Of a stretch of 64,000 bases of DNA, positions 18,101 to 57,179 are shown in pieces (the stretch's first letter is position 1; each line of letters starts with the position of its first letter). A model generated the notes under the pieces. That model ran no database searches. It saw only the letters and a program-made list of their open reading frames with translations, and was not told the DNA's origin. The position numbers and the translations under genes were made by a program. Origin of the DNA: an uncultured Gammaproteobacteria bacterium (GTDB lineage Bacteria > Patescibacteriota > Patescibacteriia > Veblenbacterales > UBA10138); NCBI GenBank assembly GCA_964348825.1, contig CAYGDX010000001.1:239463-303462 (forward strand), in the 5' to 3' direction.

Positions 18101-21100
18101 TTAGCTATTGCCTTTACCCAAGCTGACGATGCTGATGCCGCTGATACTAATGCCGCACTTAATATTAGTTTAACTTCTTCTTCCACTGACGCTGATACTT
18201 TGTATGGTATCAACTTGTCTAACATCACAGCTGGTACAGCAAATGAATACGCCATCAATATTGGTACAGGTTATGATCGAGGTATTAACTTAGGCGCTAA
18301 CTCAATTGTTGGTTCAACTGGTATTATTGATTACACTAATTTTGATGTTGATGCTTCTGGCAATGTTGATGCCTTAGGTACTCTTACCGCAGGTTCCGCA
18401 AATGAAGTACTTACTTTATCAACTGGCAAAATTGATGCTGACGCTATTACTTTAGCTGCCTCTGGTACTACTGGTTCTACTTCAAGTCGTTCTGGACTTC
18501 AAACTAGTTCTGACGGTTTAACGCTTTTAATGGGTTGTGCTGATGGCCAACTTTTGGAGTGGACTGATGCTAGTGGTTGGGCTTGTGCGGCAGACGATAC
18601 TGGTAGTAGTGGAGCTAGCGTGGAAGAAGGTGACAGTGCGGCTGTGGCGGCTTTATCTGTTCTTGATTTCTTAGCCGCAGATTTTGTAGTATCAGAAAGT
18701 CCAGCCAATGAAGCTAATGTGAGTATTGATTATCCAAATTCTGGCATTACCCGCAAAGCTCAAGCTGAAACAATTTCTGGTGGTTGGACATTTAATACTG
18801 CCGCCACTACTTTCACCACCGCCATAAATGCTAATGGTGGTATTACCACTACCACCGCTGATCAAAATTTAGCTTTTTCAGCTAATGGCGGCGGCGATTT
18901 TGTTTTCAATGTTGATAGCGGTACTTTTGTTTCTATTACTGGAACAGCTGACGGTGAAAGCGCCTTAACCATTGCGGCTGGCAACCTTACTCTAACCGAT
19001 GGCGACCTAGCTGTTTCCGCTGGCGATTTCAACGTCAATCTCGACGACGGCGACACAGTTAATATCGATGGCGATGCCACACCAACCGCTGATTTATTAA
19101 AACTTGGCAATGGTGATACCTCCGCGACTGATGATGTTGATGCTTTGCAAATTACTTTTGCTACGAGTGGTGCCTCAGGTAATTTAATTGATCTTAGTCC
19201 AACTTTTGCGGATTCTGATGCTGGAAACTCAGCCGAAACTTGGAATGCTGTTAATGTTAATGCTTTTACCGTCACCCAAAATGATTCAGGTGGTGCCATC
19301 ACTGGTGTAGTCAATGGTTTTAATTTAGGCAACCTCACAGAATCTCCAACTGGTGATGATGCTATTACTTCTACGGCAATTAAACTTGGAACAGGTTGGG
19401 ATTATATTTTTGATACAGCTGGGTTTGATGTGTTAGGCGCTACTGGTGCTACCACTATTACTGGTAGTGGTGATGGTACTGACGCTTTAACTTTAACTGC
19501 TGGTGATATTTTAGTTACTAATGGTGACCTTGATTTATCAGGTGGCGATTTTAATGTTATTTTGGATGCGGGTGATGGCGTGAACATTACTAAAGGTGCC
19601 GCGCCAACTGTTGATGTATTTTCAATCAATGGCTCAACTTCAACTACTGATGGTGTGGACGGTTTGCAATTAACATTTGGTGTTTCCGCCGCTTCCGGCA
19701 ATGTGATTGATATTACGCCAAGTTATACTGATGCCACAGCTGGTGCTACTTCAGAGACATACAACATTATTGACGTCGATGCTTTTACCGCCACCCAAAA
19801 TGCCACTGGTGACACTGGTTTAATAAATGGTTTAGCGATTGGTGCCTTAACTCAAACTGAAACCGCTGGCGCTTTAACGGCTTATGCTTTAAATATTGGT
19901 TCTGGTTGGGATAGTGTTTTGCGGGTGAATGGTACGGAAGTTGTTGACGCTTCTGGTAACGTGCCGGTAGCTAGAATTAATGGCACCCTCTTTACAGTTC
20001 AAGGTGACAATGCCGCTGGTCGCGCTATAACTCAAGGCAATACTTTAACTATTGCTGGTGGTACTAATTTAACTAGTGTAGATGCCGATACAGATACTGT
20101 TACTATCAACCTTGATGATTCAATTACTCTAGCTGGTGACCTAACAGTGCAAGGTCAGAATGTTAATTTTGATAATGCCACTGATATTGATATTGATGAT
20201 AACACTGCTTCGTCATTTACCATTTCTGAGGGCGCTAATAATTATTTCTTAATTACCACTACTAATGATAGTGAAGTAGTAACTTTAAATTTACCAGCTG
20301 GCGGCGCTACTTCTTTAACTGGCAATCTTTTTACTTCTGACATTGTAAAAACTATTAATATTGGTACTGGCACGGCGGCTGACACTATTAATTTAGGTAC
20401 TGGTACTACTAATCCTGATGCTATAAATATTGGCACTACTGATACTGTTGCTCATGTGATAAGAATTGGTGATAATACTGGTGCCTCTTCTTCTGACATA
20501 GCTATTGCTGACGCACAATGGAGTATAACTACCGCCGGTCTCATCACCACGGCCGATAATTTAGCGGTGAATGGTGGAGATATAACAACAACTGCCACTG
20601 ATCCAAATATTTTTAATACTGGTACAATATCTACTATAGATATTGGCGCTACCGTAACTGGCAACATTACTTTTTCTAATGGCTCTGGTTCTAGTGGTTG
20701 TACTATTGATGGTTCTGGTAACTTAGCTTGTGCAGGTACTATCACTGGTTCAACTTCTGGCGCGCAAGGTTATTGGACTCGTACTAGCACAACATTATCT
20801 CCTACCAACGCCGGCGATAGTATTGATATGCCTTCCGGTACTGGTGTATTTACCCAAACTTACGCTCCAGCCGGCACTACCGTGGCCGCTACTGGTGCGA
20901 CTTTTATTCCAACGTTTGGTGTGCACGCGGATAATCAGACTTTGGTTGGTGTAGCAATTAATCCAGTTACGAATTCCAATGATGACACTGGTGATATTTT
21001 AAATGCTTTAAGTATTGGCACTATCAATGCCACCTTGGCAAGTGAGCGCGCCATTTATATTGGCACGAGTTATGATACTGATTTAGTGTTTGGCGATACT

Positions 21101-24100
21101 ACACCAGTCGTAACTTTTGGTGATGGCGGCAACTTAACTTTCACCGATGGCACTAATACTTTACTCACTTTAACTGACGGTGGAACAGTTGGGAATTTAA
21201 GTGTCAGTGGCGACGTTACTACTACTGGCGATGTGGCGATAAATGGTGGCAATCTAAATTTTGGTGCGGCGACTACGATTGGTGATGGCGGCGATACAAT
21301 TGCTTTTAGTTTGAAAGATAATTCAGCTGATGCTTTAGATGTTCAACAAAGTACTAACAATTACATAAACATCAACACTTCTGATGGTAATGAAAATATT
21401 GCTCTTTCTACTTTACGTCAAACTGGTGGTGATGCTATTTCATTACTTGGTGATTCAATTACGACCGGTACAGCAGTTGGTGTTTCAGCTGATGTTATAA
21501 CCACTGGTGTGGCTTTAGATATTTCTTCAATTTCAACTGTGGCTAGTTCAGCCGATTTAATTCAAGTTGATCACACTGCGACTTATGTTACAACAGTTGC
21601 TAATTCCGGTAATTTACTTGATTTATCACGCGCTTTAACTACTAACACTGGTGGCGCTTTAACTAATAGTGGCGCAGTTGCTACTATCACTTCCAATTGT
21701 ACTCAAACCGCCGGTACTTGTACTGATACCGCAAACATTTTATCACTTACTCAAAGTTATGCTTCAGCTTCGGGAGCAGTTATTAAAACTTCCAATGCTG
21801 GTACGGGTGTTGATATTGAATTAGATAATGCCGAAACAATTGATAACTCTGTCAACGGTACAATCAATCTTGGCACCACAACTTTTAAACTTACTGGCGG
21901 TACCACCATTGTGTCTGATCAAGCTACAGTGGCTTTACTTGATTCTACCACCACCACTATTAATTTTGGTTCAGCCGCCACGGCTGTTAACTTAGCTGAT
22001 GCTGCTATCACTGGCACAATTGATATTGGCGGTGTGACAGCTGATGGCGCTTCAACTATTAATATTGCGACCAACTCTACTTCATCTGATACTTTAGTCA
22101 TTGGCAACTCTAACGCTTCTACTTTAGTTACTTTAACAGGTGGTGATGATTGGTCCATTTCTAATACTGGTGTACTTACATTAGATGGTACAACTTTAGA
22201 CATCAACTCACTTGATTTTGTTGGCGCTGGTACTTTTACTTCAGGTGCGGCAACTAATTTAACTTTAACTCCCGGTACCACTGGTGACTTAGTATTTTCG
22301 ACTGACGCTGATACCACTGCTACATTTTCTGGTTCAGCTGATGGCACAGCTAATGTTATTTTAACAGCTGGTGATTTAACTCTCACTGATGGCGATCTGG
22401 CTGTATCAGCTGGTGATTTCAATGTGACTTTAGATGCTGGTGATGGTGTGACGATTACTAAGAATGCAGTGCCAACGGTTGATATATTTACCATTTCCAA
22501 TACTGGGCAAGGTATCACTACCACTGATGGTGTAGATTCACTGGCTTTAACTTACGTACAAGCTACTAATGCCGCGGCAGTAGCTGGCTCTGCTTTAGAT
22601 ATTTCTGTTACTCAATCCGGTGATGCTTCGGATACGATTCGTGGTATTAATATCAATAATATTACTGGCGGTTCTTCTACCGAAACTGCTTTATCAATTG
22701 GTTCAGGTTGGGACACTGACTTAGCTTTTGTTGATACTTCACCAACTGTAACTATTGGTGGTGGTGGCACTATCACTTTCACTGATGGTACCAACACATT
22801 GTTTAGTATTGCTGATGCCGGTACAACTGGAAATGCTACAACGACTGGCAACTTAGCAGTTAGTGGTGGCGATATTACCACTGGCGCCGCAACGTTTAAT
22901 TTCGTGGCTGGAACAACCACTCTTAATTTAGCCGGCGGTTCTGGTTCCACTGGTTGTACGGTTGATGGTTCAGGCAACCTTACTTGTACTGGTGCAATTA
23001 CGGGTTCAGCTTCTGGTGCGCAAGGTTATTGGACTAGAACTGACAATATTTTAACTGCCACCAATGCCAATGATATTTTATCATTACCTTCTAATGACGC
23101 TGATTCACCAGTACTTAATTTGGCTTCTTCCGCTATCACTGCCAATGGCACAGCTTCTTTAAATCAAGCGGTGACAGTTAGTTCATCCGCCGCCGGTGTA
23201 ACAGCTTATGGTTATAAATTAGCTCTAACTAATAATCCATCTACCAATGCCAATACTTTATATGGTGAATATATTTCTTTTACTGATGCTGGATCGCTAG
23301 CTAATACTGTAACTGGACTTTATGTTGATGCCACCACTGCTAATGCTTCGGATACTACTTATTCAGGGGTTTTTACCGGTGGTAATTTTGGTATTGGTGA
23401 TACAAGTCCAGCTGCTTTATTAACAGTTGGTAGTGGTGATTTATTTCAAGTAGATTCTTCTGGTAATGTTACGGCTGTTGATTTAGCCGTGAATGGTGGA
23501 GATATTACTGGTGCTACCACTATGAACGTCTTTAACACTTCAACCACTATTAATTTAGCCGATGCCGCTATTACTGGCACGATTGATATTGGTGGTGTAT
23601 CAACTAATGGTACAACTACAGTTAATATTGCAACTGAAGGCACCTCAGCTGATGTTATTACAATTGGCAATTCTAATGCTTCCTCAACTGTTGCGATTAC
23701 TGGCGGCAATGACTGGTCAATTGCTGCTAATGGTAATTTTGTTACCTTAGGAACTTTAACTGCTGGCTCAGGTGCGGAAGTTATTACTTTGTCAACCGGT
23801 AAAATTGATGCCGATGCTATTAGTTTAATGACTGCTACGAATGGTGTTGGCACTACTTCAACTGCCTCGGGTTTGGAAGTAGTGAGTGACAAATTATCAT
23901 TATTGCAAGGTTGTACTGATGCTTATATTTTAAAGTGGGAAGAAGATACAGATACTTGGGATTGTGCGGCAGATGCCACTGGCGGTGGAGCAGGTAGTTT
24001 GCAAGGCGCTTATGATGGTACAAATACTATTACGACTTCAGATAATCGTGACATTGCTTTTACTTTGGCCGATACCAACTTAACCAACACCACGCCAGAT

Positions 24101-27100
24101 GCTAATGATTCTGATTTTACTGTGACTACTGCTTCAGGTAGTACCAGTGAAACAAAAATTATTTTAGCTGATGGTGTTGGTACAGTATCGCCAACAGAAT
24201 TGTTATTAATTAATAACGCGGATACTTCAGGCAATACTTTGGCTAATGGTATTACCGTTAGTTCCGCTGGTTCAGCCATCACCACAGGTATTAATTTAAC
24301 TGATGCGGATTTAGTAAATGCAATTAGTGTAGATGCCAATACTATTTTAGGCACCACTGGTGATATAAATTTTACAAATTTTGATGTTACAGGTTCAAGT
24401 GGTGATGTTGTAACCGGAGGTGATGTGGCAGTGAATGGTGGAGACATTACTGGCGCCACCACTATGAATGTTTTTAATACTTCAACCCTCATTAATTTAG
24501 CCGATTCCGCAATTACTGGCACGATTGATATTGGTGGGGTAACGGCCGATGGTGCAACTACCATTAATGTGGCCACTCATTCAACTTCAGCCGATGTAAT
24601 AACAATAGGTAATTCCAATGCTTCAACTACAGTGGCGATTACTGGTGGTGATGATTGGGCAATGGCCGCCACTGGTGTACTCACTATGTCAGCTTCCGCC
24701 GCCGCTACCACTGCGATAGTTATTACTGATACTGATTATACTAACGCTTTATCTATTGGTGATAATATTATTACCGGTACAACCTATAGTTTAGTTGGCA
24801 CATCGGCAACTATTGATTTTTCCGAATTTGATGTAGCCGCCGCTACCGGCGCTATTACTATCAACGATGATGGGGATGCTGGAAATATTTCTATTGAAGG
24901 CACGGTGCTGGATATTAACTCACTTGATTTTGTCGGCGCGGGCACTTTAACTTCCGCAGCGACTACGAATTTAACTTTTACTCCTGGTACCACTGGTGAT
25001 TTAGTATTTTCCACCGATGCTGACACCACCGCCACCTTTAGTGGTTCAGCTGAAGGTACAGCTAATGTTATTTTAACGGCTGGTGATTTAACTTTGACCG
25101 ATGGTGATTTAACATTATCAGGTGGTGAAATAGCTGCGACTTCAGATGATGCCACTGGTACAAATTTTAATTTTACTACTGGCGCATTAACTTCTGGTAC
25201 AGGTTTGGCAGTGGCCACCACTGGTGCTGTGGCTACGGCTTACACTGGCGATGTGATTAATGGTAGTTTTACACAGACCGTAACATCGGGTACGCCATTT
25301 AACAATACTGGCAATGTACTTGACATTTCTCGTGCTTTAACTATTAATCAAGCAGCCGGTGATACAGTCACACAAAGTGGTGCCCTAGTTAGTTTTACTT
25401 CAACTCTAGCGGCCGGTGGTGCGGGAGGTACTTTAGCTGATTCGTCAAATATTTTAGCTTTAGCTCAAAGTTGTGGCGGCGGTTTCTCTTGTACCGGCGC
25501 AGTATTAGGTATTACCAATGCTGGTACAGGTAGCGCTATTGCAATAGGTGCTATGTCAGCAAGTAGCGCCACTACCTCAGTCGCTAGTATTGATATTGGT
25601 GCTATTACTACAACCAACATAACTACTTCTACTGGTTTGAAAATTGGAGCTTTATCTGGTACGGGTACTACTGGTTATGGAATTGATATAGCTGGTATTA
25701 CAAAAACTGGTACTACAGCTACTGCTATTAACATTGGCGCTATGTCAGGCGCTGCCACTACTAACACTGGTATAGCAATTGGCAATCTATCAGCCGGTAC
25801 CACTTCTAATGGTATTACTATCGGAACTAATTCTTCAGCAACTTCAAAAGGTATCACTATCGGAGCAATGACTGGCGCCACTACTAACACTGGTATTGAT
25901 ATTGGCAACATTAGTACTGGTACCACTTCCAAAGGTATTAACATTGGGACTTTAGCTGGCATCAATGGCGGTACTGTCACTGGCATAGCTATCAGCACTA
26001 TGTCTGGTGCCGCTACCACCACTTCGGCTACTAGTATTGATATTGGTGCTATTACTACAACCAACATAACTACTTCTACTGGTTTGAAAATTGGAGCTTT
26101 ATCTGGTACGGGTACTACTGGTTATGGAATTGATATAGCTGGTATTACAAAAACTGGTACTACAGCTACTGCTATTAACATTGGCGCTATGTCAGGCGCT
26201 GCGACAACAAATACTGGGATCGCTATTGGAAATTTATCAGCTGGTACAACTTCCAAAGGTATTACTATTGGTACTAATTCTTCAGTTACCGCCACCGGTC
26301 TAGATATTGGTGCTTTATCTGGCACCACAGCTAATATTGGGGTGAAGGTGGGAGCTATTTCAGGAGCTAGTGGCACAGGAACAGGTCTTGATATTGGAGC
26401 TTTTACTAATACTGGCGCTACTCAATATGGAGTCAATATTGGAGCTTTTTCAGGAACACATGCGGCAGGAGGAGGAACCACTGCTGGAATTAATATTGGG
26501 AATATTTCTTCAGCAGGAACTACTTCATCAAATTATGGAATTCAATTAGGAACAATGACTGGTGGTACCACTGCAAATTATCAAATTAGTACTGGTATCT
26601 TAACTTCAGCTACCACCACAACTAATGCTCAAATTAATTTAGGTGGGGTGGTCACAACCGGTGGTACTACTAATTATGGTATCAATGTGGGGGCACTCTC
26701 TGGCACTGGTACCACTAACTATGGAATAAATGTTGCTGCATTGACATCTGTTGGAACTACAAATTATGGGTTAAATGTTGGTGGCGCGACTGGAGCGGCT
26801 ACTACTAATTATGGCGTGTTTGTTGGTGCAGTAACTGGAGCTTCCACCAATATTAGTTTGGCCTTTGCCAAAGAAAATGCACATACTATTAAAGTTTTAG
26901 ATAGTACAACTGCTGATACTGTAGGCGGTGCCTTAAGTATTACTGCTGGCGCCGCGGCAAATAGTACATCTACCGCTCGAGCTGGTGGGGCTATTACCCT
27001 AACAGCTGGAGCTGGTGCGGCAAATAGTAGCGCTACTACTGGTCAAACAGCCGGTGCGGGTGGAGCACTTAATATTAATACTGGAAATGGTGGTAATGAA

Positions 27101-29863
27101 ACTGGTAATGCAGCCGTTGTTTTAAATGGTGGTGCAGGTGGCGCAATAACAATTGATTTAGGTGACGGAGGATCACCATCTGGTTTAAGTACAGCTGGCT
27201 CAACTGGTAATGGTGGTGTTGGTGGGGCATGGTCATTAACTTCTGGTGCTGGTGGGGCTGTAACTAATGTTAGCAATCTTGTTCCAACTAGAAATGGCGG
27301 TGATAGCGGATCTATAAGTTTAATTACTGCTACTGGTGGTGAAACTAGTTGTTCTGCCTGTTCACCTAACTCAGCACAAACATTTATTGGTGGAGCCGCT
27401 GGGAATATTAATCTTACTGGTGGTACGGGTGGTGCGGCATTTATGTCTTCTGACGCCGGTGGAACACAATCATATACTGGTGGAGATGGCGCTACTATTA
27501 ATATAACAGCAGGAACTGGTGGAGCCGCATCTACTACTTCTGCAGATACAAATGTTGGTGGTGCAGGTGGAGCTCTTTCTTTTTCTGCTGGTGCTGGCGG
27601 AGCCGCTACAAATGGTACTGATACTGGTGGGGCGGGTGGCGACGTCACAATAAATGCCGGTGATGCAGGCAATGGTGATGGGAATGTTGACGGCGGAGAT
27701 GTCACTATTTATGGTGGCAATGCAGATGGCAGTGGTGTTGATGGAGATGTTATCCTTGCCTATACTGGTGCGGCTGTACAAGGAAATGTTGGTATTGGTA
27801 CTAGTACAACAACAATTCAAGCTACTGCAGGTTATGCAGGTCTCCATGTTAATGGATTAGTGAGAATTATAAATCCACAAGGTACAACTACCGCACCTAC
27901 TCTCGCTAACGAAGGTGAACACGCTTTTGCCACTGTTAGTGCTGTTGAACGTATGTATGTTTGGATTAATGGAGCTCGTAGATATTTTAACCGTACCGGT
28001 TCAGCTGACTTTTCAGAATTTGTTATAAAACAAGATGTTGTATCGTCTATTGTACCAGGTGATGTGGTTACTTATTTAGATTCTTCTACACCACGAGCTG
28101 GTATAATATTAGCAACTAACAATAATGGTGGGCGTGTGATGGGTGTGGTTTCAGCTGGTGGTACCCGTTATAATGATGATGAAGGTGAGGGTTTGCGTGG
28201 TGATGATCCAAATTACGCCAACGTTGGTATGCTTGGTCACGTGCCAGTGAAAGTCAATTTAGGAAATGGCCCGATTGTGCCAGGTGATTATTTGGTGCCA
28301 TCATCAACTGCTGGTGTGGCAATGAAATCGCCTAACGAAGCTGGGGTAATGATTGGTTTTGCTATGGAGAGTTACGATGGTAGCGATGCTGATGGTCAAA
28401 TTATGATGTTTGTAAGCCCTGGTTTCTATGATCCAAATGCTAATACATATTTCTCTAAATCTGGTGGTGAAGTATTAGGTAGTATGAAAGTTGTATCTTC
28501 TGGTACGCCGATGGAAATTAATTTAACTGGCTCCACCGATATAAATGCAGTGCGGAATATTTTTGAGGCGAAGTTAAATGGTGAAATGAAATTTCAGATT
28601 TTGGAGACGGGTGATGCAACATTATCTGGTAAGTTGAATGCGGGTTCACTCAAAACAATTGCGCAAGCCGAAATTGGTGGTGATTTGGAATTGTCTGGCG
28701 ATTTCAAAGTTGGTGGTTTAGTACGCTTGGATAGAAATGGTAATTTGAAAAATATTACATCTGTTCAGGTTGTCTCAAGCGTGAATGCGGATGGTAGTAT
28801 CACGCTTGGAACTATTCCATCGACATCAGTTGGTTCGTCTGTATCTATCGCGCAAACTTCCGCTGATCCTATTTCCGCTACACGCGCGGCGTTGGCTTTA
28901 TCTTCGGCTGGTACATCGGCATCTGATTATCTTATTTATTCAGAGCCATTCCAAGTTACTTATGATGGCCGGGTGAAGAGTAAGAGTTTGGAGGTTAAAG
29001 AAAGTGTGTTAGTTGGTGGTGATAATGTTACTTCAGGTAATTTGATTTCGGGTAAAGTAGGGGATAGTTTTAGTGGATTGCTCGTGAAGTTTACAAACAG
29101 TTCAGGTAAATCATTATTCTCAATTGATGGCAGTGGGTTACTGGTGGTGGATGCAGTTAAAACTCGCGCGATTGTGATTGATAATACTGACCAGCCGCGC
29201 GCCACAATTGGTAGTGCGGTGGTACCAGCACAAAGTTTGGTGATCACAGTGACTGCGCCTGAAGTGCGACCTGGTATGAAAATTTTCATCACACCTAAAA
29301 TTGCTATTTCACAATCACTGGCTGTAACAAATATTGAGCAGGGGAGTTTCACAGTTTCCTTGGCTCATCGTTCGGCTTCGGATGTGCCATTTGATTGGTG
29401 GTTGGTTGACGTGACTAATCCATCATTTACAGCTTCATCACAAGTAGTTGATTCTGGTAATGGTGGAAATAGTAATGAGCAGGGGAATGGAGGCAATAGT
29501 GTGTTGCCAACAGATAACACCCAACCGACAACCAACAACACTGTTGAGCCAGTAGCAAGTAATGAGCCAGTAGTTGATTCAACTCAACCAGTGGCGAGTG
29601 GTACGCCAGTTGCGCCAACTACAGTTCAGCCAACTGCTAGTGTTGAGCCAACCTCAACTGAATCACAGCCCGTTGCTTCTACTACCACCGAACCAGCGCC
29701 AACCACTGCTCCCATCACCGTTACCGATTCAACCCCAGTCGCTTCGGTCAGCACACCAAGCGCACCAGAACCAACCCCAAATTCAACTTCAACCACTACT
29801 ACCACCACCGAACCAATTGTAAACAACACTCCCACTGTCCAAGCCAGCATAGTAGCGGAATAA
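12158..29863 (+). CDS. Giant (5,901 aa) repetitive surface protein, built from an N-terminal cytoplasmic excisionase-type HTH (about aa 20-75), a K/E/P/V-rich linker, one TM helix (about aa 212-232), about 5,500 aa of Thr/Gly/Ala/Ser/Asn-rich tail-fibre-like repeats, and a C-terminal Pro/Thr/Ser-rich low-complexity tail
   Basis: A single 17,706-nt open frame. The HTH segment LISLAEAAKLTPYSQEYISLLARRGKLLAWKKGRNWCTTREAVQSYL matches the HTH_17 pattern. The TM segment is HWFYLALFLIAVPVIIFSLT. Recurring unit-ending motifs are AI-x-IGSGWD/AINIGTGYD, LTLTDGDLAVSAGDFNV and LNADAIDG..SEQF. About 16-aa IG/SG solenoid-like repeats occur at aa 4450-4800, Gly-rich GGAGG repeats at aa 4960-5200, and GNVGIGTSTT..LHVNG near the C-terminus. 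Confidence 0.85.
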   Translation: MNPVEPGSVVKSTSQDNLISTPSDQELISLAEAAKLTPYSQEYISLLARRGKLLAWKKGRNWCTTREAVQSYLDKQTKDAAEKLERHQVVLESSKPEIKEVKPGIILSPEQLLPVAEIKVATPIVSEIKVSPEIKPEVPVVIPVEKVATAESSAVLAAREIANVLGETLGARFDSIKQELKQVNEQVSRSVPAYATPVPSAVVVKQNKIKSHWFYLALFLIAVPVIIFSLTQGLAEDAPGKLLASLKNAWTLDGHRAGTEANEVLILNEAGNISIKGHIETQGQLRSYARDGIAPIVVDSTTKIEKLNADAIDGYSSEQFNLAFITKQGNVTSDDVYLKGKVEVGQILEVKGATKLLDELLVGGGLGVWGKSFFHNDVAVDGKVDVSKSLAVKKDITAGGNVVAQNKVVAEKGLETGGDIVTNNNDIFLGSGTIIKEGKELIKNLNAEYWNGQAASDFNLDMITDNGAVTDNQITVGGINSTGTSRFTGRTELLGETVIGNLESLTVNGKTNLRNTDVSGTLAVAGHGLFSSLGVAGSAGVINLSSKEFSTTNASIGGSSSNTLAVAASSTFSGPISASNSVSLTSATPAISTSAGDLVLQSKGATTTANVQIGVGGDGSTTPDLLVLDVKSDATDPTGTDGAMYYNTSTDKFRCYENAAWTDCVGAGGGGGSTLQAAYVSGNTISTTTDDGDLAVTLADTTTDRNFTVTIADGATGTVSISRADGAGTSDPSQLLLLDNLDTNRSIADGLKIQSAAGLIVDGIDVSDAELTNALNVGDNIIAGTTAEINFSNFDLATSGNIQVAAGVGLDTNGAGSLTLGVSNATTIDIAGGSSSTGCTITNATGSLVCSGINSTPVGATSPSTGAFTTLSSTGATTLGNNSSTVAVDTTSWDISSAGAISGLTGLTVASGTVSLPNGQIDNSELANSTITFAGDTGSSTTALGATRTIAGGGGLTSADNSSGTLTLAVGAGTGITVNADDLAVNQSTAFAWTGQQSWTATVTATGALGDFNPTLGNDTDVDTVAGIQIDATSAATGDADNFYGLNITLASADATVNERAIEIGSGWDSALSVGGSSIINGSGVLQSAGLSGTYSNALTLSSATNSITAGTLIVGADTVTDLTGTGLQVVANALQATLGTDITSSEIADDSIMNVDINSAAAIAFSKLAALTSGNILVGNGSNVATSVAMSGDVLISNAGLTTIQPDAVVLATDTSGSYIATIAGSTQVGVSGSGLENAAVSLSINNDSIGDTQLAFDTGQTLTTTATPQFARLGVGVAADATNILTATSTSTTDLSKVLNISHTGAITGTGYASYFSKTGASTTNVGLYSTASGASNNYAAVFEAGNVGIGDTTPSSKLEIGDGTDSLQISTVGDLTFVDADGAASITGPAGGALTIASGASQALTLTGNAASIWDIGANVLSLQTTNNGAITTGTGLLTSGGNITFSGTSARTITGPNTGAAAALTLTTTGNGSGLKLTSAAGASGNSGAITLQSGDTATSGTSGAITIDSGAGVTANGVITIGTTNAPTTTIGGCTFDRVAGSMSCSGAVGGGTGTQGYWNRSGTTLSPATAGDSVSTSGAISTTGTGAVTSAGTLTASADFTANGNVQLGDNTADTLTIYPTAWTATPTISGLITATSGITSNGTATFNTNTNFTLAGAENVSLTNTTASADQLSLAVSGVTTDAVDGLAIAFTQADDADAADTNAALNISLTSSSTDADTLYGINLSNITAGTANEYAINIGTGYDRGINLGANSIVGSTGIIDYTNFDVDASGNVTVAGDLAVNGGNVNFGATTTIGDGGDALTIDSNGTLTISDATVTGSGALTVTPAAASALTLGTTGVGNTTSITLATDSTGDAEVVLPTGSVSGTEILDDTVVLTTDTAGDYVASITAGGGLTGTTSGEGSTPTLAVGAGTGITVNADDVAINQDTSFTWTNSHAFTLAGAENVSLTNTTASADQLSLAVSGVTTDAVDGLAIAFTQADDADAADTNAALNISLTSSSTDADTLYGINLSNITAGTANEYAINIGTGYDRGINLGANSIVGSTGIIDYTNFDVDASGNVDALGTLTAGSANEVLTLSTGKIDADAITLAASGTTGSTSSRSGLQTSSDGLTLLMGCADGQLLEWTDASGWACAADDTGSSGASVEEGDSAAVAALSVLDFLAADFVVSESPANEANVSIDYPNSGITRKAQAETISGGWTFNTAATTFTTAINANGGITTTTADQNLAFSANGGGDFVFNVDSGTFVSITGTADGESALTIAAGNLTLTDGDLAVSAGDFNVNLDDGDTVNIDGDATPTADLLKLGNGDTSATDDVDALQITFATSGASGNLIDLSPTFADSDAGNSAETWNAVNVNAFTVTQNDSGGAITGVVNGFNLGNLTESPTGDDAITSTAIKLGTGWDYIFDTAGFDVLGATGATTITGSGDGTDALTLTAGDILVTNGDLDLSGGDFNVILDAGDGVNITKGAAPTVDVFSINGSTSTTDGVDGLQLTFGVSAASGNVIDITPSYTDATAGATSETYNIIDVDAFTATQNATGDTGLINGLAIGALTQTETAGALTAYALNIGSGWDSVLRVNGTEVVDASGNVPVARINGTLFTVQGDNAAGRAITQGNTLTIAGGTNLTSVDADTDTVTINLDDSITLAGDLTVQGQNVNFDNATDIDIDDNTASSFTISEGANNYFLITTTNDSEVVTLNLPAGGATSLTGNLFTSDIVKTINIGTGTAADTINLGTGTTNPDAINIGTTDTVAHVIRIGDNTGASSSDIAIADAQWSITTAGLITTADNLAVNGGDITTTATDPNIFNTGTISTIDIGATVTGNITFSNGSGSSGCTIDGSGNLACAGTITGSTSGAQGYWTRTSTTLSPTNAGDSIDMPSGTGVFTQTYAPAGTTVAATGATFIPTFGVHADNQTLVGVAINPVTNSNDDTGDILNALSIGTINATLASERAIYIGTSYDTDLVFGDTTPVVTFGDGGNLTFTDGTNTLLTLTDGGTVGNLSVSGDVTTTGDVAINGGNLNFGAATTIGDGGDTIAFSLKDNSADALDVQQSTNNYININTSDGNENIALSTLRQTGGDAISLLGDSITTGTAVGVSADVITTGVALDISSISTVASSADLIQVDHTATYVTTVANSGNLLDLSRALTTNTGGALTNSGAVATITSNCTQTAGTCTDTANILSLTQSYASASGAVIKTSNAGTGVDIELDNAETIDNSVNGTINLGTTTFKLTGGTTIVSDQATVALLDSTTTTINFGSAATAVNLADAAITGTIDIGGVTADGASTINIATNSTSSDTLVIGNSNASTLVTLTGGDDWSISNTGVLTLDGTTLDINSLDFVGAGTFTSGAATNLTLTPGTTGDLVFSTDADTTATFSGSADGTANVILTAGDLTLTDGDLAVSAGDFNVTLDAGDGVTITKNAVPTVDIFTISNTGQGITTTDGVDSLALTYVQATNAAAVAGSALDISVTQSGDASDTIRGININNITGGSSTETALSIGSGWDTDLAFVDTSPTVTIGGGGTITFTDGTNTLFSIADAGTTGNATTTGNLAVSGGDITTGAATFNFVAGTTTLNLAGGSGSTGCTVDGSGNLTCTGAITGSASGAQGYWTRTDNILTATNANDILSLPSNDADSPVLNLASSAITANGTASLNQAVTVSSSAAGVTAYGYKLALTNNPSTNANTLYGEYISFTDAGSLANTVTGLYVDATTANASDTTYSGVFTGGNFGIGDTSPAALLTVGSGDLFQVDSSGNVTAVDLAVNGGDITGATTMNVFNTSTTINLADAAITGTIDIGGVSTNGTTTVNIATEGTSADVITIGNSNASSTVAITGGNDWSIAANGNFVTLGTLTAGSGAEVITLSTGKIDADAISLMTATNGVGTTSTASGLEVVSDKLSLLQGCTDAYILKWEEDTDTWDCAADATGGGAGSLQGAYDGTNTITTSDNRDIAFTLADTNLTNTTPDANDSDFTVTTASGSTSETKIILADGVGTVSPTELLLINNADTSGNTLANGITVSSAGSAITTGINLTDADLVNAISVDANTILGTTGDINFTNFDVTGSSGDVVTGGDVAVNGGDITGATTMNVFNTSTLINLADSAITGTIDIGGVTADGATTINVATHSTSADVITIGNSNASTTVAITGGDDWAMAATGVLTMSASAAATTAIVITDTDYTNALSIGDNIITGTTYSLVGTSATIDFSEFDVAAATGAITINDDGDAGNISIEGTVLDINSLDFVGAGTLTSAATTNLTFTPGTTGDLVFSTDADTTATFSGSAEGTANVILTAGDLTLTDGDLTLSGGEIAATSDDATGTNFNFTTGALTSGTGLAVATTGAVATAYTGDVINGSFTQTVTSGTPFNNTGNVLDISRALTINQAAGDTVTQSGALVSFTSTLAAGGAGGTLADSSNILALAQSCGGGFSCTGAVLGITNAGTGSAIAIGAMSASSATTSVASIDIGAITTTNITTSTGLKIGALSGTGTTGYGIDIAGITKTGTTATAINIGAMSGAATTNTGIAIGNLSAGTTSNGITIGTNSSATSKGITIGAMTGATTNTGIDIGNISTGTTSKGINIGTLAGINGGTVTGIAISTMSGAATTTSATSIDIGAITTTNITTSTGLKIGALSGTGTTGYGIDIAGITKTGTTATAINIGAMSGAATTNTGIAIGNLSAGTTSKGITIGTNSSVTATGLDIGALSGTTANIGVKVGAISGASGTGTGLDIGAFTNTGATQYGVNIGAFSGTHAAGGGTTAGINIGNISSAGTTSSNYGIQLGTMTGGTTANYQISTGILTSATTTTNAQINLGGVVTTGGTTNYGINVGALSGTGTTNYGINVAALTSVGTTNYGLNVGGATGAATTNYGVFVGAVTGASTNISLAFAKENAHTIKVLDSTTADTVGGALSITAGAAANSTSTARAGGAITLTAGAGAANSSATTGQTAGAGGALNINTGNGGNETGNAAVVLNGGAGGAITIDLGDGGSPSGLSTAGSTGNGGVGGAWSLTSGAGGAVTNVSNLVPTRNGGDSGSISLITATGGETSCSACSPNSAQTFIGGAAGNINLTGGTGGAAFMSSDAGGTQSYTGGDGATINITAGTGGAASTTSADTNVGGAGGALSFSAGAGGAATNGTDTGGAGGDVTINAGDAGNGDGNVDGGDVTIYGGNADGSGVDGDVILAYTGAAVQGNVGIGTSTTTIQATAGYAGLHVNGLVRIINPQGTTTAPTLANEGEHAFATVSAVERMYVWINGARRYFNRTGSADFSEFVIKQDVVSSIVPGDVVTYLDSSTPRAGIILATNNNGGRVMGVVSAGGTRYNDDEGEGLRGDDPNYANVGMLGHVPVKVNLGNGPIVPGDYLVPSSTAGVAMKSPNEAGVMIGFAMESYDGSDADGQIMMFVSPGFYDPNANTYFSKSGGEVLGSMKVVSSGTPMEINLTGSTDINAVRNIFEAKLNGEMKFQILETGDATLSGKLNAGSLKTIAQAEIGGDLELSGDFKVGGLVRLDRNGNLKNITSVQVVSSVNADGSITLGTIPSTSVGSSVSIAQTSADPISATRAALALSSAGTSASDYLIYSEPFQVTYDGRVKSKSLEVKESVLVGGDNVTSGNLISGKVGDSFSGLLVKFTNSSGKSLFSIDGSGLLVVDAVKTRAIVIDNTDQPRATIGSAVVPAQSLVITVTAPEVRPGMKIFITPKIAISQSLAVTNIEQGSFTVSLAHRSASDVPFDWWLVDVTNPSFTASSQVVDSGNGGNSNEQGNGGNSVLPTDNTQPTTNNTVEPVASNEPVVDSTQPVASGTPVAPTTVQPTASVEPTSTESQPVASTTTEPAPTTAPITVTDSTPVASVSTPSAPEPTPNSTSTTTTTTEPIVNNTPTVQASIVAE
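17132..17503 (+). repeat. Intragenic direct repeat copy A (372 bp, apparently nucleotide-identical to 17996..18367; 864-bp period)
   Basis: The protein segment FTLAGAENVSLTNT...FDVDASGNV is duplicated exactly. The antisense ORFs 17188..17394 and 18052..18258 translate identically. Confidence 0.85.
17996..18367 (+). repeat. Intragenic direct repeat copy B
   Basis: See copy A. Confidence 0.85.
25586..25757 (+). repeat. Intragenic direct repeat (about 172 bp identical, then diverging; 447-bp period), copy A
   Basis: AGTATTGATATTGGTGCTATTACTACAACCAACATAACTACT...GCTATGTCAGGCGCTGC recurs at 26033. Confidence 0.8.
26033..26204 (+). repeat. Intragenic direct repeat, copy B
   Basis: See copy A. Confidence 0.8.
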
Positions 29864-30624: not shown

Positions 30625-30833
30625 AGTTTTACAACTTAAATCGCCACAGACAGTAGGTGTCCCATGTTCATCGGACTTAAGCTCAAAAAGGCCTGCCGAG
30701 GTAAGTAGTCAAGAGTCATAATTTTTGACTGATAGCTTATTATCTGTGGGTTAACCACAGTTTTTTTATTTAGAATTCGGTTGCTTTAGCAACCACCCAC
30801 CAAATCGGCGGGTAAAAGCGGGACTTTTATTTT
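30625..30833 (+). promoter_or_regulatory. rplJ 5' leader (candidate L10(L12)4 autoregulatory leader) with an internal hairpin plus U-run
   Basis: About 200-nt structured UTR. CTGTGGGTTAACCACAG is followed by TTTTTTTATTT. A GGTTGCTTTAGCAACC hairpin lies just before the RBS region. Confidence 0.45.
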
Positions 30834-43857: not shown

Positions 43858-43932
43858 GCCGCCTTCGTCTAGTGGCTAGGACACGTGGTTCTCATCCACG
43901 CAACAGGAGTTCGATTCTCCTAGGCGGTACCA
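43858..43932 (+). tRNA. tRNA-Glu (anticodon CUC) with encoded CCA
   Basis: Manual cloverleaf: acceptor GCCGCCT/AGGCGGT, D stem GTCT/GGAC, anticodon stem CGTGG/CCACG with loop TTCTCAT, T arm AGGAG-TTCGATT-CTCCT, discriminator A, CCA. Confidence 0.8.
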
Positions 43933-44048: not shown

Positions 44049-44645
44049 ATGGATTATATGTCTTTGGAGTCAAAAATAAGATTAATTACTAATAGTGACG
44101 ACCATAAATTTTATACCTACTATTTTAAGAATAATAGTGCTAAATGGAACCAATTTTGTGCTGCTTTGGATGTAATAGGAGATTCAGAGCTTGCTATTAA
44201 TGAATTTATTTTAAATGGTACGGGATCTGGAAGACTAGGAAAGAAATATCTTAATTTATACGGAATTTTTCAGGCTACGTATATTCAACAAGATGCTATT
44301 GAGACTTTGTATAAAATAGTGAAGCATTCATTCAAAAATAATAAACTGAAAGTTTTTGAAAAGTATAAAGGAAAAAATTGGGATGAATTAAGGAATTATA
44401 GAAATCTGACCGTGGGACATCCTACAAAATGTGAGACTTTTGAAAAAGGAAAAACAAAAAATACTTTTATTGTTCGATCAACTTTGGGTTCCGGAGGTAG
44501 TTTTCAAATTTTAATTTGCGATGATAAGCAAAAAGTTTTTAAATATGTGGATATAAAAAATTTAATTGCTTGCTATCTTTTGGATGTTGAGTATATTATT
44601 GCTGATATTGAGATATCTCTCAATTTTATCAAAGAAAGTTTATAA
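44049..44645 (+). CDS. Hypothetical HEPN-like protein (candidate MAE_28990-type HEPN nuclease)
   Basis: 198 aa. Carries an Rx4-6H-type motif, ELRNYRNLTVGHP. AT-rich relative to neighbouring genes. Confidence 0.4.
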   Translation: MDYMSLESKIRLITNSDDHKFYTYYFKNNSAKWNQFCAALDVIGDSELAINEFILNGTGSGRLGKKYLNLYGIFQATYIQQDAIETLYKIVKHSFKNNKLKVFEKYKGKNWDELRNYRNLTVGHPTKCETFEKGKTKNTFIVRSTLGSGGSFQILICDDKQKVFKYVDIKNLIACYLLDVEYIIADIEISLNFIKESL

Positions 44646-44650
44646 GTTAT

Positions 44651-46609
44651 ATGAAAAAAATATTTTTAGTTATAATTTTTGGCATTTTAACATTTTCGGG
44701 ATTTATATTTTTACCGAAATTTGTTTATGCTGCAGATTCAACCCCGATCATAAGTTCTATAACACCTGTGACGCTTCATTATTATGATGAGGCAGAAATC
44801 ATAGGAACTGGATTCGGTAATGATAGAACAAGAGGTGGTGTTGATTGGGCGGGTACAGGTGCTGGAAGTTACAGTTTGGCGGTTGACTCATGGACTGACA
44901 CAAAAATTAGTATAAGGATTAATCAGGAATTTCCAGGTAATCCGTATGGATCACATGGCATTATAGTTCGCACAGATAATGCTAATGGTGGGAATAATTA
45001 CAGCAATTCGTTTATCGTTAATGTAGAGAAGTCTTTGTGTGATCCGAAAAACTGGTCTTGTGGCACTTGGAGTGCTTGCACTGCCGCTGGTCAACAAACA
45101 CGCTCCTGTAATAAGGCACTTATTTGTGAAGGATCTATTACATCACCGCTGACGATTCAAAATTGCACCTATACACCACCCGCATGTACTTTTAGTGATT
45201 GGCAATGTGATGCTTGGAATGAGTGTTCTGTTAATGGTTTGCAAACTAGAAAATGTGATTTAAAGTATGGTGATAAAAATTCATCATCACCTGTATGTCA
45301 AGGTGGTGTAGCATCACCACCAACCACTCAATCATGTACATATATTCCCCCTGCTCCAACTTGCAATGCCGATACATGGACTTGTGGTGGTTGGAACGCT
45401 TGTTCGATTTATGGTTTGCAAACTAGAAATTGTAGTAAGGTTTTTGATTGTTCAACAGTTAACACGCAGTCCCCACTAACATCACAAAGTTGTACACCAC
45501 CATCTGTTTATCAACTACCACCACCAAGTTGTAATTCAGATACATGGACTTGTGGCGATTGGAATACTTGCTCACTTTCAGGAATACAAAATAGAAGTTG
45601 TAGAAAAACTTTTGATTGCTCAAGCGTAGAAACAGCGCCACCAACAACTGATCAGTATTGTGAGGTGCCTAATAGACCAACACAACAAGTACCTCAAAAT
45701 AGTGTTGATGAAATTTCAAATCAAGATATAATAATTAAATCTACTGTTAAACTTTTATGTCCTGTTGATACACAAAGAGCTAGCCAAGGATCAGGTACTG
45801 TTATTGATTCTAATGGAACTATTTTGACCAACAAGCATGTTATTGCCGGGACGTTGGGTTGTTTAGTTGGATTTATTAATGACTTTAATGATGAGCCATA
45901 TTTTGGAGAAAGACATATAGCAGATATTGTAAAAATATCGCCTAACCAAGATATCGCTATTTTAAAGATTAGAAATCCCCAAAATCGAAAACTCACTTAT
46001 GTTGATATAAATAGGGGTTATGGAAATTTGCGATTAGGAACCCAAATTATGACTTATGGTTATCCAGCAAGATTTGGTGATAATTTAACCTACACTAGTG
46101 GTGATTTTAGTGGTAAAGAGGGTGTTTATTTAAAAACAACGGCCATACTTGAATATGGAAATTCTGGTGGTGGCGCTTATCTTAAAGATGGAACATATAT
46201 AGGCATACCTTCCGCTGTAAAAGATGGAAAATTAAATTCACTAGGTTTAATACTTTCCTTGAATACAATTAAGGCGTGGATGGGTAATTATAGTGTTGCC
46301 ACCGGACCAACGAATAATAATTATTCAAGGGTTGCTGCTTTGGAAGATATAGATTTAAAAAAGCTTGGCTCATTAAAATTATTTATTCCTAATGCAAACA
46401 CTAAGAGTGTAGTTATTCCGCCTACAACAAATAAAAATACACAAAAAATTAAAGAACAACCAAAAATTAAACCAACGCAAAAAGAATCAACTATTATAGA
46501 ACCTATTAATACAGATCAAAAAATAAATCCCGAACTAAATAATTCAAAACCATTAGAGCCAGTAAAAAAAGTAAAATGGTATAAAAAGGTGTTTAATTGG
46601 TTTAAATAA
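44651..46609 (+). CDS. Secreted multidomain trypsin-like serine protease. It has a signal peptide, an N-terminal beta domain, four or five Cys/Trp-rich TSP1-like repeats, an S1 protease domain and a Lys-rich C-terminal tail.
   Basis: Signal peptide MKKIFLVIIFGILTFSGFIFLPKFVYA. Repeat pattern C..xW.C.xW..C...G.QTR.C. Catalytic triad context: His in TNKHVIAG, Asp in DIAILKI, Ser in GNSGGGAY. Confidence 0.75.
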   Translation: MKKIFLVIIFGILTFSGFIFLPKFVYAADSTPIISSITPVTLHYYDEAEIIGTGFGNDRTRGGVDWAGTGAGSYSLAVDSWTDTKISIRINQEFPGNPYGSHGIIVRTDNANGGNNYSNSFIVNVEKSLCDPKNWSCGTWSACTAAGQQTRSCNKALICEGSITSPLTIQNCTYTPPACTFSDWQCDAWNECSVNGLQTRKCDLKYGDKNSSSPVCQGGVASPPTTQSCTYIPPAPTCNADTWTCGGWNACSIYGLQTRNCSKVFDCSTVNTQSPLTSQSCTPPSVYQLPPPSCNSDTWTCGDWNTCSLSGIQNRSCRKTFDCSSVETAPPTTDQYCEVPNRPTQQVPQNSVDEISNQDIIIKSTVKLLCPVDTQRASQGSGTVIDSNGTILTNKHVIAGTLGCLVGFINDFNDEPYFGERHIADIVKISPNQDIAILKIRNPQNRKLTYVDINRGYGNLRLGTQIMTYGYPARFGDNLTYTSGDFSGKEGVYLKTTAILEYGNSGGGAYLKDGTYIGIPSAVKDGKLNSLGLILSLNTIKAWMGNYSVATGPTNNNYSRVAALEDIDLKKLGSLKLFIPNANTKSVVIPPTTNKNTQKIKEQPKIKPTQKESTIIEPINTDQKINPELNNSKPLEPVKKVKWYKKVFNWFK

Positions 46610-48602: not shown

Positions 48603-50015
48603 TTATATAATTTTTTTCACTGCTTCAATTAAGCTCGGTGAGTTATAATATTGCAGTAATTGCTCCGCCCAGTTTTTATCATCTAACTTGATATCTGGCT
48701 CTATACCGCGGCCTTCAATTGGTTGGCCATCGTCGCGTAAGGTTACCGCGCGTACAATCAAAGCCGAGAAAGTTTCATCTTCTGAAATTTTGGTGCGGAG
48801 TGGAAAAAAGTTTTCCACTGTACCTTGCCCACGTGTACTAGTACCAAGTACTACACCTAAATTAAAGCGTTTTAAAGCGGTGGCAAAAATTTCAGCCGAC
48901 GAGGCAGTATTTTTATCAACTAAGGCCACAATTTTCGTAAATTTATCAAGCCCAATTAATTTGTCGGTTTTAGTGCGATAGCTTTCTGGTTCGCCTTGTT
49001 TAAAATAATCATAAGCATATTGATTCTGTCCTAACCAAAAACCTAAAAGGTAAGGTAAGGTTTCTACTGCGCCACCAATATTACCGCGTAAATCAATTAT
49101 CATTGAGCTATTATTGGGCATAGTGGCGGTACCAGAAATATTTTCTTTAAATTCATCAAGGAAAGTAGGGGAGATTTGTTTGAATTTAAAATAGATAATA
49201 TCACTGGCTAATTCTTTTTTATCAATACTTGGCTCAGCGCCAGTTTTATCATAACGAGCTTTTTTGTCGACTTCGCTAAGTGTAGCGAAAGCGCGACTTA
49301 AATCTTTTTTAGTCGCCTCAGCCTCAGGACCAGTTTTATTTAGTAATTCCTGATTTTTAGCTTCGTAAGCTTTTTTAATCTCAGTTTCTGATGCTTGGCT
49401 TGATACACCCAGCACTTTATATAAATCAGCTGATTTATCAATGCCCGCCACTTTGTTACGCAAATCTTTCTCGGCTTTTTGGCTATATAAACGACTGCGT
49501 CCAGCAGGTGTTAAATTGGCTAGCACTAAATCACTGATAGTAACCACGAAATCCCTTTTTTTGTCAGCATCAATTTTATCAATTTCGCGCGTTAAGAGTT
49601 CTGTTAAAGTAGCGCGTGATGGTTTATTTAATGTTTGCGGTTGACCCGAGGCCTTTTCTAAAGCCAGTTTGTAAAGATTAATTAATTTATCGTCATCCAC
49701 CTTTTCCCAATAATTAGCTTGAATTTGCTCATACAGTTCCATTAGGAAAGCGGTGTGCGGTGCTGTAATTTTATTAGCCGACTGGGTGGCTGATTTTTTA
49801 GGTGCTAGAGCAAAACCAAGGCCTGTACCAGCAACAAACATTGCTAGTAAAATAAGAAGGGCCGCATAAATTTTTCGGCGATTAAAATCTTTGTCGTAAT
49901 TTTCCCGCGCACCAGACCCGATATTTTTCGGGACGGTACGGGGCTCCGTGTTGGGTTGTATCATAAAATAATTATAGCATAGTAATTTGGGATTTGCTTG
50001 TGGATAGGTTGACAA
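48603..50015 (-). CDS. S41-family C-terminal processing peptidase-like protein with an N-terminal TM helix and a J-domain-like segment lacking HPD
   Basis: Peptidase motif IIDLRGNIGGAVE and a TASSAEIFA Ser region. The central region DLYKVLGVSSQASETEIKKAYEAKNQELLNKTG is J-like but has no His-Pro-Asp. Confidence 0.65.
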   Translation of the reverse strand: MSTYPQANPKLLCYNYFMIQPNTEPRTVPKNIGSGARENYDKDFNRRKIYAALLILLAMFVAGTGLGFALAPKKSATQSANKITAPHTAFLMELYEQIQANYWEKVDDDKLINLYKLALEKASGQPQTLNKPSRATLTELLTREIDKIDADKKRDFVVTISDLVLANLTPAGRSRLYSQKAEKDLRNKVAGIDKSADLYKVLGVSSQASETEIKKAYEAKNQELLNKTGPEAEATKKDLSRAFATLSEVDKKARYDKTGAEPSIDKKELASDIIYFKFKQISPTFLDEFKENISGTATMPNNSSMIIDLRGNIGGAVETLPYLLGFWLGQNQYAYDYFKQGEPESYRTKTDKLIGLDKFTKIVALVDKNTASSAEIFATALKRFNLGVVLGTSTRGQGTVENFFPLRTKISEDETFSALIVRAVTLRDDGQPIEGRGIEPDIKLDDKNWAEQLLQYYNSPSLIEAVKKII

Positions 50016-54676: not shown

Positions 54677-54750
54677 GCGGGTATCGTATAGTGGTAGTAC
54701 GCGACCTTCCCAAGGTTGTGGCACGGGTTCGATTCCCGTTACCCGCTCCA
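54677..54750 (+). tRNA. tRNA-Gly (anticodon CCC)
   Basis: Acceptor GCGGGTA/TACCCGC, anticodon loop TTCCCAA, T arm ACGGG-TTCGATT-CCCGT, CCA encoded. Confidence 0.8.
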
Positions 54751-54753
54751 TAG

Positions 54754-54829
54754 GCCGAAGTAGCTCAGTTGGTAGAGCAGCGCATTCGTAACGCGCAGGT
54801 CGCGAGTTCGATCCTCGCCTTCGGCTCCA
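54754..54829 (+). tRNA. tRNA-Thr (anticodon CGU)
   Basis: Acceptor GCCGAAG/CTTCGGC, D arm GCTC-AGTTGGTA-GAGC, anticodon loop TTCGTAA, T arm GCGAG-TTCGATC-CTCGC, CCA encoded. Confidence 0.8.
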
Positions 54830-57105: not shown

Positions 57106-57179
57106 TGGGGGATCGTCTAACGGTAGGACATCGCCCTTTGAAGGCGAGTATCATGGTTCGAATCCATGTCCCCCAGCCA
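57106..57179 (+). tRNA. tRNA-Gln (anticodon UUG)
   Basis: Acceptor TGGGGGA/TCCCCCA (U1:A72), D arm GTCT-AACGGTA-GGAC, anticodon stem TCGCC/GGCGA with loop CTTTGAA, T arm CATGG-TTCGAAT-CCATG, CCA encoded. Confidence 0.8.

Follow-up and report, generated by a model that had tools for sequence, protein, structure and literature searches.

The gene at positions 44651..46609 (+) of a 64,000-nucleotide (nt) stretch of contig CAYGDX010000001.1 (positions 239,463 to 303,462; assembly GCA_964348825.1; the whole stretch is hereafter the window), deposited as an uncultured Gammaproteobacteria bacterium and placed by GTDB in the Patescibacteriota, encodes a secreted multidomain serine protease of 652 amino acids (aa). 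The gene limits were taken from the list of open reading frames (ORFs). The four cysteine-rich repeats of this HtrA-like enzyme probably belong, as a divergent variant, to the thrombospondin type-1 repeat (TSR) superfamily, whose members the literature regards as extracellular adhesion modules of eukaryotes. From the N- to the C-terminus, the protein consists of a signal peptide, an IPT/TIG domain, the four TSR-like repeats, the HtrA-like protease domain, a disordered tail and a terminal amphipathic helix. A protein with 100% identity to it (P0001) is present in public assemblies, and its full-length AlphaFold2 (AF2) model has a mean predicted local distance difference test score (pLDDT) of 75.5.

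Four repeats and their cysteines

The spacing W.C..W..C...G.Q.R.C occurs exactly four times in the protein, at aa 135, 184, 243 and 299, and the interval 45038-45671, to which the preliminary description had assigned the repeats, corresponds to aa 130-341, beginning at the first Cys of repeat 1 and stopping shortly after the last Cys of repeat 4. Three repeats on the forward strand were delimited by pattern, alignment and hidden Markov model (HMM): repeat 1 (45032..45184; aa 128-178; Cys 130, 137, 143, 153, 159, 172), for which AF2 gives a three-strand pattern, repeat 2 (45185..45361; aa 179-237; Cys 179, 186, 192, 202, 216, 229) and repeat 3 (45362..45529; aa 238-293; Cys 238, 245, 251, 261, 267, 281). 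Repeat 4 (R4), the protease-proximal unit on the same strand (45530..45670; aa 294-340; Cys 294, 301, 307, 317, 323, 337), is conserved as an orthologous unit. All four units contain six cysteines; their alignment has 15 invariant columns, with the other three units 39-49% identical to the first. Start-to-start distances are 49, 59 and 56 aa, the last unit measures ~47 aa, and repeat 2 has an 8-residue insertion in its C4-C5 interval. At the DNA level the units share just 65-82% identity over 51 nt, from which the duplications behind the four repeats appear to be old. Four to five repeats of ~45 aa had been described at first; the four are real, but no fifth was found, and a repeat HMM run over all six frames of the window returned 4 copies, all in the protease ORF, with nothing significant elsewhere, so the number is four. 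Their position between an N-terminal beta domain and an S1 protease domain was described correctly, with IPT/TIG (PF01833) and Trypsin_2 (PF13365) flanking them.

The repeat family was defined from the 120 homologues listed by a full-length search, all of which carry the repeat, at 1-8 per protein. The observation is far beyond chance, because the unit recurs 508 times in these proteins and 495 copies have an even number of cysteines, either 6 or 4. The consensus is P-x-C-T-A-D-[ST]-W-[ST]-C-[GS]-[DN]-W-[SGN]-x-C-S-x-[SN]-G-x-Q-T-R-[ST]-C-x-K-T-x-[DN]-C-(x12)-Q-S-C-T-Y-x-P-P. Cys2 and Cys4 are both present in 368 copies; in ~134 copies Tyr stands at the Cys2 position and Cys4 is replaced as well, mostly by Ile, Val or Thr, and mixed cases are essentially absent. 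Cys1 and Cys5 are jointly lost in 6 closely related copies belonging to one small group. This co-loss across the 508 copies argues strongly for a C2-C4 disulfide and weakly for C1-C5, and would leave C3-C6 as the third pair by elimination. W8 (77% W, the remainder F or Y), W13 (97%) and the single Arg, R24 (99%), are conserved, at positions that correspond in the alignment to the Trp and Arg of TSRs. Conservation of the surface positions Q22, K28 and Q43 is at over 60-90%, and the inter-repeat linkers are Pro-rich.

Relationship to thrombospondin type-1 repeats

A profile built from 101 diverse repeats (A2) was searched against 1.84e9 proteins (representatives of 50%-identity clusters), and its top 150 matches include two proteins whose own repeats are recognised as TSRs by Pfam: P0210 (E 6.5e-45), with 44 TSP1_ADAMTS stretches (E=0), and P0226 (E 1.9e-41), with 10 TSP1_ADAMTS stretches (E 7e-75) beside pAdhesive_15, which we take to be a bacterial domain. 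The alignments of A2 with P0210 keep profile positions 3-50 in register through ~44 consecutive units, with a constant 3-residue insertion at the canonical 'xCG'. The P0226 repeats read W-x2-G-x-W-x2-C-S-x2-G-x-Q-T-R-x-V-x-C … P-A-T-S-Q-S-C-T-P-P and appear to be an intermediate form, because they have the CSxxGxQTR spacing of the variant without the TCG Cys, yet keep the canonical RxVxC. P0226 thus shares with the repeats of the 652-aa protease the CS-x2-G-x-Q-T-R segment without the TCG Cys, the C-terminal motif P-A-T-S-Q-S-C-T-P-P and the tandem arrangement in a secreted, adhesin-like, apparently bacterial protein; it differs in that its repeats have four Cys and a canonical R-x-V-x-C, lack the N-terminal Cys and the inter-Trp Cys, and pass the Pfam threshold, which those of the protease do not.

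Profile-profile alignment also revealed similarity to bona fide TSRs. Against human TSP1 TSR2-3 as a single sequence, hhalign gave too weak a result (probability 7%, E 0.005), and this comparison was therefore replaced by one with a profile that combined 45 real TSR units of P0210, to which A2 aligned over 40 columns with a probability of 95.1% and an E-value of 3e-8. The score of this alignment was 36.4, compared with 9.6±2.2 (maximum 17.4) for 100 column shuffles of A2. In the reverse direction, an HMM made from the P0210 units matched 74 of 250 family proteins at E<=1e-3. The weak direct sequence matches in Pfam and the PDB all belong to TSR families (TSP1_ADAMTS, TSP_1, PTN_MK_C and THSD7A): repeat 2 alone matched Pfam TSP1_ADAMTS over profile positions 1-51 of 55 (E 0.003, 18.2 bits), 10 of the 101 diverse repeats gave weak matches to TSP1_ADAMTS or TSP_1, more than for any other family, and a PDB sequence search with the repeat profile returned a single, non-significant match, a TSR of THSD7A (E 3.1). 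The C-terminal domain of PTN/midkine (PF01091) is generally regarded as a TSR-like fold, and the PTN_MK_C matches found in 6 of 73 non-protease family members (best E 5.7e-12) may be another sign that the repeat family belongs to TSR fold space; these matches, however, span just the N-terminal third of the PTN_MK_C profile, and none comes from the 652-aa protease's own repeats. The preliminary description had raised the prospect that profile libraries would assign the repeats to an unrelated bacterial Cys-rich family, and none does.

Structure prediction, which the same description had suggested, gave a three-stranded repeat. Modelled by AF2 with the A2 alignment (101 sequences), repeat 3 reached a pLDDT of 92.6, with strands at residues 7-10, 21-30 and 43-45. 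Foldseek returned six PDB matches for this model, all TSR-containing (MIC2, Unc5A, Unc5D, a C5b8 chain and Semaphorin-5A TSR3-4), the best being the MIC2 TSR (8j64_B; template modelling (TM) score 0.58/0.60, root-mean-square deviation 2.0 Å). The elongated three-stranded TSR fold is therefore present by prediction, with weak E-values, and each repeat would be a small elongated module of three strands with three disulfides and a reduced Trp/Arg core.

Several observations weigh against placing the repeats among TSRs. Pfam and NCBIfam scans of the whole protein reported the protease domain only, with no TSP1 match at E<=10, and no repeat reached the gathering threshold of Pfam TSP1 (best 18.2 bits against 23.8). 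The reverse TSR HMM matched the 652-aa protease itself at just E 0.028. The canonical CSxTCG, WxxW ladder and RxR are reduced to two Trp and one Arg, and the canonical CSxTCGxG motif with its six-Cys pattern is absent, the second Cys and the next Gly being deleted to give CSxxGxQTR. The Foldseek E-values (0.9-8) are not individually significant for a 51-residue domain, although weak values are common for domains of this size, and a TSR fold known to AlphaFold from its training could have biased the prediction.

Such points would fit an independent bacterial Cys-rich module, on a protease that would still be secreted, that has converged on the TSR motifs (W, C, G-x-Q-x-R) and shares no ancestry with eukaryotic TSRs. 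Small disulfide-rich beta modules have few possible solutions, and convergence would agree with the failure of every repeat at the Pfam TSP1 thresholds, the weak Foldseek E-values, the different Cys pattern (with a new C2-C4 pair and without the TCG Cys) and the low per-unit scores against P0210 (0-20 bits, with a large bias term). We nevertheless consider it improbable: the alignment stays in register through about 48 of the 51 profile positions and ~44 units, the hhalign result (95%) lies ~12 standard deviations above composition-preserving column shuffles, the intermediate P0226 is matched significantly by Pfam TSP1_ADAMTS as well as by the repeat profile, and an independent fold prediction matches TSR proteins exclusively. 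We conclude that the repeats are a distinct cysteine variant in the TSR superfamily, not canonical Pfam TSP_1. Their original description as TSP1-like is borne out by the A2 profile matches, the hhalign probability and the all-TSR Foldseek matches; its parallel with the eukaryotic TSP1 repeat stands as far as a TSR-like character is concerned, but scores below Pfam gathering and the lack of the CSxTCGxG cysteine make this a divergent variant.

The nature of the divergence can be seen by comparison with the ADAMTS-type TSR (PF19030 TSP1_ADAMTS; also PF00090 TSP_1). Both have ~50 aa and six Cys, W-x4-W-[SN]-x-C-S followed by G-x-Q-T-R, three Cys in the C-terminal half, a conserved Pro before the last Cys and a three-stranded elongated fold (predicted for the variant). 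The ADAMTS-type repeat reads W-x4-W-S-x-C-S-x-x-C-G-x-G-x-Q-x-R-x-V-x-C, whereas the variant reads C-x4-W-x-C-x2-W-x2-C-S-x2-G-x-Q-T-R-x-C-x5-C-x12-C. The variant lacks the 'xCG' of CSxxCGxG (a 3-residue deletion in which one Cys is gone), has its Cys after the Arg at R+2 instead of R+4, and has an extra inter-Trp Cys that would pair with the Cys two residues past the Arg, giving the probable connectivity C1-C5, C2-C4, C3-C6; it has one conserved Arg and no O-fucosylation motif, and falls below the Pfam gathering thresholds at which ADAMTS-type repeats are called. As in ADAMTS proteins, the repeat module is fused to a secreted protease, but the partner here is a serine (S1) enzyme instead of a metalloprotease and lies C-terminal to the repeats.

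The protease and the possible role of its repeats

The N-terminus (44651..44731, +; aa 1-27), MKKIFLVIIFGILTFSGFIFLPKFVYA followed by AD, reads as a signal peptide or membrane helix, with an AF2 helix at aa 2-19; judged by eye, cleavage would occur after VYA. The next domain is an IPT/TIG beta-sandwich (44741..45028, +; aa ~31-126), all-beta in the AF2 model with a pLDDT of about 85-95. PF01833 was unreported in the Pfam scan of the whole protein, and aa 28-128 alone matched it above the gathering score (E 6.6e-5, 23.3 bits against a cutoff of 20.9). Downstream of the repeats lies an HtrA/DegS-like S1 (Trypsin_2) protease domain without PDZ (45743..46285, +; aa ~365-545; PF13365, E 1e-15), whose PDB sequence matches are HtrA, DegP and HhoA (~1e-8) and whose predicted fold matches DegP, DegS and HTRA1 in Foldseek (E about 1e-10, target TM up to 0.78). 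The domain has the chymotrypsin fold and the His-Asp-Ser triad of the HtrA/DegP (S1C) group, and the catalytic residues His396 (45836..45838, +), Asp434 (45950..45952, +) and Ser505 in GNSGG (46163..46165, +) are each invariant in 120/120 homologues. Cys370 and Cys404 of this domain are invariant in the family alignment, which is consistent with an oxidising, extracytoplasmic location. A disordered Lys/Pro/Gln/Thr-rich tail of low-complexity composition (46397..46576, +; aa 583-642; AF2 pLDDT <50) is followed by a conserved basic/aromatic amphipathic segment (46577..46606, +; aa 643-652; AF2 helix aa 644-650) ending VKKVKWYKKVFNWFK. Equivalent motifs stand after a disordered tail at the C-termini of the protease-family members P0002-P0045, for example WYKKVFNWFK, WFKRLFHWLVNLF and GFSLFGWIFRLFAK; no Pfam model covers them, and this helix is a possible envelope anchor.

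In comparison with HtrA, DegP and DegS (MEROPS S1C), the enzyme has the same protease fold and triad (22-28% identity, Foldseek E about 1e-10) but differs in its N-terminal TIG domain and TSR-like array, its disordered tail and its C-terminal amphipathic helix. No PDZ domain was found by the Pfam scan of the whole protein, the C-terminus being disordered instead, and the HtrA family level was not reached, the score being far under the NCBIfam HtrA cutoff (TIGR02037, 49 bits against 416).

The repeat next to the protease domain is set apart from the others. The last repeats of 119 homologues have a mean identity of 74% to R4, compared with 32% for the other repeats, and the last Cys of R4 is 56-61 residues from the catalytic His in 120/120 proteins. 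R4 contains twelve invariant columns of the family alignment, and together with the linker and the protease domain it accounts for most of the invariant columns; the number of upstream repeats is variable, and so is the N-terminal head, which may be TIG, LamG, PG_binding_1, SH3 or SLH. We tentatively propose a stalk, exosite and anchor model, to which we give close to an even chance of being right. The protease would be exported by Sec and located outside the cell, with its C-terminal helix and tail tethering it to the cell envelope. R4 and the catalytic domain would form a fixed unit in which R4 probably acts as a docking or substrate-recognition exosite in place of the missing PDZ, and the variable outer repeats and N-terminal head would form a stalk or adhesion arm, rigid, protease-resistant and stapled by disulfides, for binding to a surface polymer. 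The bound surface could be the bacterium's own wall or that of a host cell, and proteolysis would be targeted there. The host-interaction or matrix-binding role in a symbiont envisaged in the preliminary description is plausible, because the homologues are almost all from Patescibacteria.

A different possibility is that the TSR-like repeats bind no ligand and provide a stiff, protease-resistant spacer of adjustable length for the catalytic domain or the head. The copy number of 1 to 8 among orthologous proteases, the joining of the module to many unrelated domains (cytochrome c, Big_13, PG_binding_1, SH3_3, cohesin, S8 protease), the Pro-rich linkers and the lack of the strongly basic RxR face of canonical TSRs would all suit such a spacer. 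R4, however, is conserved beyond what a passive spacer needs (74% against 32%) and at a fixed distance from the active site, and the conserved surface positions Q22, K28 and Q43 exceed the needs of the fold, and we consider the ligand-free spacer rather unlikely.

An operon-based clue to the function proposed here was rejected: around the protease gene lie PBP2, MurF, tRNA-Glu, an unknown 198-aa ORF, a nitroreductase, an MFS transporter, an S41 peptidase and MurJ, housekeeping or envelope genes without relation to it. This neighbourhood is uninformative on function, which counts against the model. Surroundings of this kind, with PBP2 and MurF upstream and MurJ and the S41 peptidase downstream, would be in keeping with an HtrA/DegP-like housekeeping enzyme that performs envelope quality control on the cell's own misfolded exported proteins or wall machinery and is neither host-directed nor nutrient-scavenging. 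HtrA, DegP and DegS are also the closest structures and families, and the protease family is widespread across Patescibacteria in the manner of a core gene. Against a housekeeping role speak the lack of PDZ and the score of 49 against 416 bits for NCBIfam HtrA, the variable adhesin-like heads (LamG, TIG, SH3, SLH, PG-binding), which are atypical of HtrA chaperone-proteases, and the flanking genes, which a tRNA and an unknown ORF separate from the protease gene and which are not obviously co-functional with it; we regard this role as doubtful, to about the same degree as the spacer. The 198-aa ORF (44049-44645, +) lies directly upstream, ends 5 nt before the protease start and has no Pfam match; the same pair of genes is present on two other public contigs.

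Distribution of the variant and other features of the window

The full-length search returned 250 proteins, whose source names are almost all lineages of Patescibacteria, also called the candidate phyla radiation (CPR). A scan of GTDB species genomes for the protease yielded 506 loci, and the full-length matches there include Gribaldo-, Staskawicz-, Falkow-, Nomura-, Kuenen-, Moran-, Magasanik- and Buchananbacteria and other Parcubacteria. Close homologues of the protease were also seen on 2-5 kb contigs of metagenome-assembled genomes labelled Gammaproteobacteria, Anaerolineales, Bacteroidota or Proteobacteria (L003, L005, L007, L022, L025, L027 and L031); these are probably misbinned Patescibacteria contigs.

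The repeat itself extends well beyond the protease. A homology search with the 221-aa repeat region gave 8 matches, and with A2 3,637 cluster representatives, mostly from Patescibacteria, carry the variant at E<=1e-3, 1,121 of them at E<=1e-10. A TSP1-like repeat had been thought rare in bacteria; for this variant that is wrong, given 3,637 representatives of 50%-identity clusters in many architectures. Just 26 of 130 newly found top A2 matches have a protease domain, and the many partner domains (Big_13, cytochrome c, PG_binding_1, SH3_3, bacterial TSP3, cohesin, LamG, fn3, beta-helix, S8 protease and the purple-acid-phosphatase N domain) suggest that the variant is a promiscuous extracellular module. 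In P0139, P0148 and P0246, from higher-GC bacteria, TSR-like repeats are fused to c-type cytochrome domains behind lipoprotein-signal-like N-termini, and one cytochrome c fusion is Anaeromyxobacter terrae WP_242343506.1; an adhesion-type module with extracellular electron-transfer proteins is an unexpected pairing.

According to one review (PMC3417536), TSP1 is an animal domain that apicomplexans acquired by lateral transfer. Full-text literature searches found no paper tying thrombospondin type-1 repeats to Patescibacteria or CPR, and trypsin-like or HtrA proteases are unmentioned in a paper on Patescibacteria genetics (PMC10633639). Mentions of 'thrombospondin' in a CPR-related preprint concern type-3 repeats and were set aside as irrelevant. 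TSRs in bacteria are not unheard of, because Pfam-positive TSP1_ADAMTS repeats exist in the apparently bacterial P0226; the new elements here are a large cysteine variant centred on the CPR and the fixed association of this variant with an HtrA-like protease that lacks PDZ. The result is a domain-level reassignment and not a new mechanism. It concerns a variant found in at least 3,637 protein clusters, mostly of ultrasmall symbiotic bacteria, that is invisible to Pfam and NCBIfam; through the variant, a large set of CPR surface proteins now listed as 'hypothetical' can be annotated, and it bears on the origin of the TSR fold. A conserved surface protease with a putative fixed TSR-like exosite is also a candidate factor for the CPR cell-surface lifestyle. 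A broader reading, which we find unlikely, is that Patescibacteria hold a very large uncatalogued radiation of the TSR fold, reflecting a deep bacterial history or a major inter-domain transfer of a domain that is a hallmark of animal and apicomplexan adhesion, and that CPR episymbionts use TSR-like arms on host surfaces; if it were true, protease-coupled TSR-like arms would recognise and process host-cell surfaces.

Elsewhere in the window, a giant ORF of 5,901 aa (12158-29863, +) lies in a stretch of raised GC content, 0.42-0.445 compared with 0.34-0.40 elsewhere; neither half matches Pfam at E<=1e-3, and the product is possibly a large surface protein made up of unknown families. A 470-aa ORF (48603-50015, -) joins a DnaJ (J) domain (aa 197-256) to Peptidase_S41, an unusual fusion, and also has an N-terminal membrane segment. 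A ribosomal protein L10 leader is located at 30626-30777 (+), and there are four tRNA genes, for Glu-CTC (43858-43932), Gly-CCC (54677-54750), Thr-CGT (54754-54829) and Gln-TTG (57106-57179), the first of which is flanked by murF and by the unknown ORF upstream of the protease gene.

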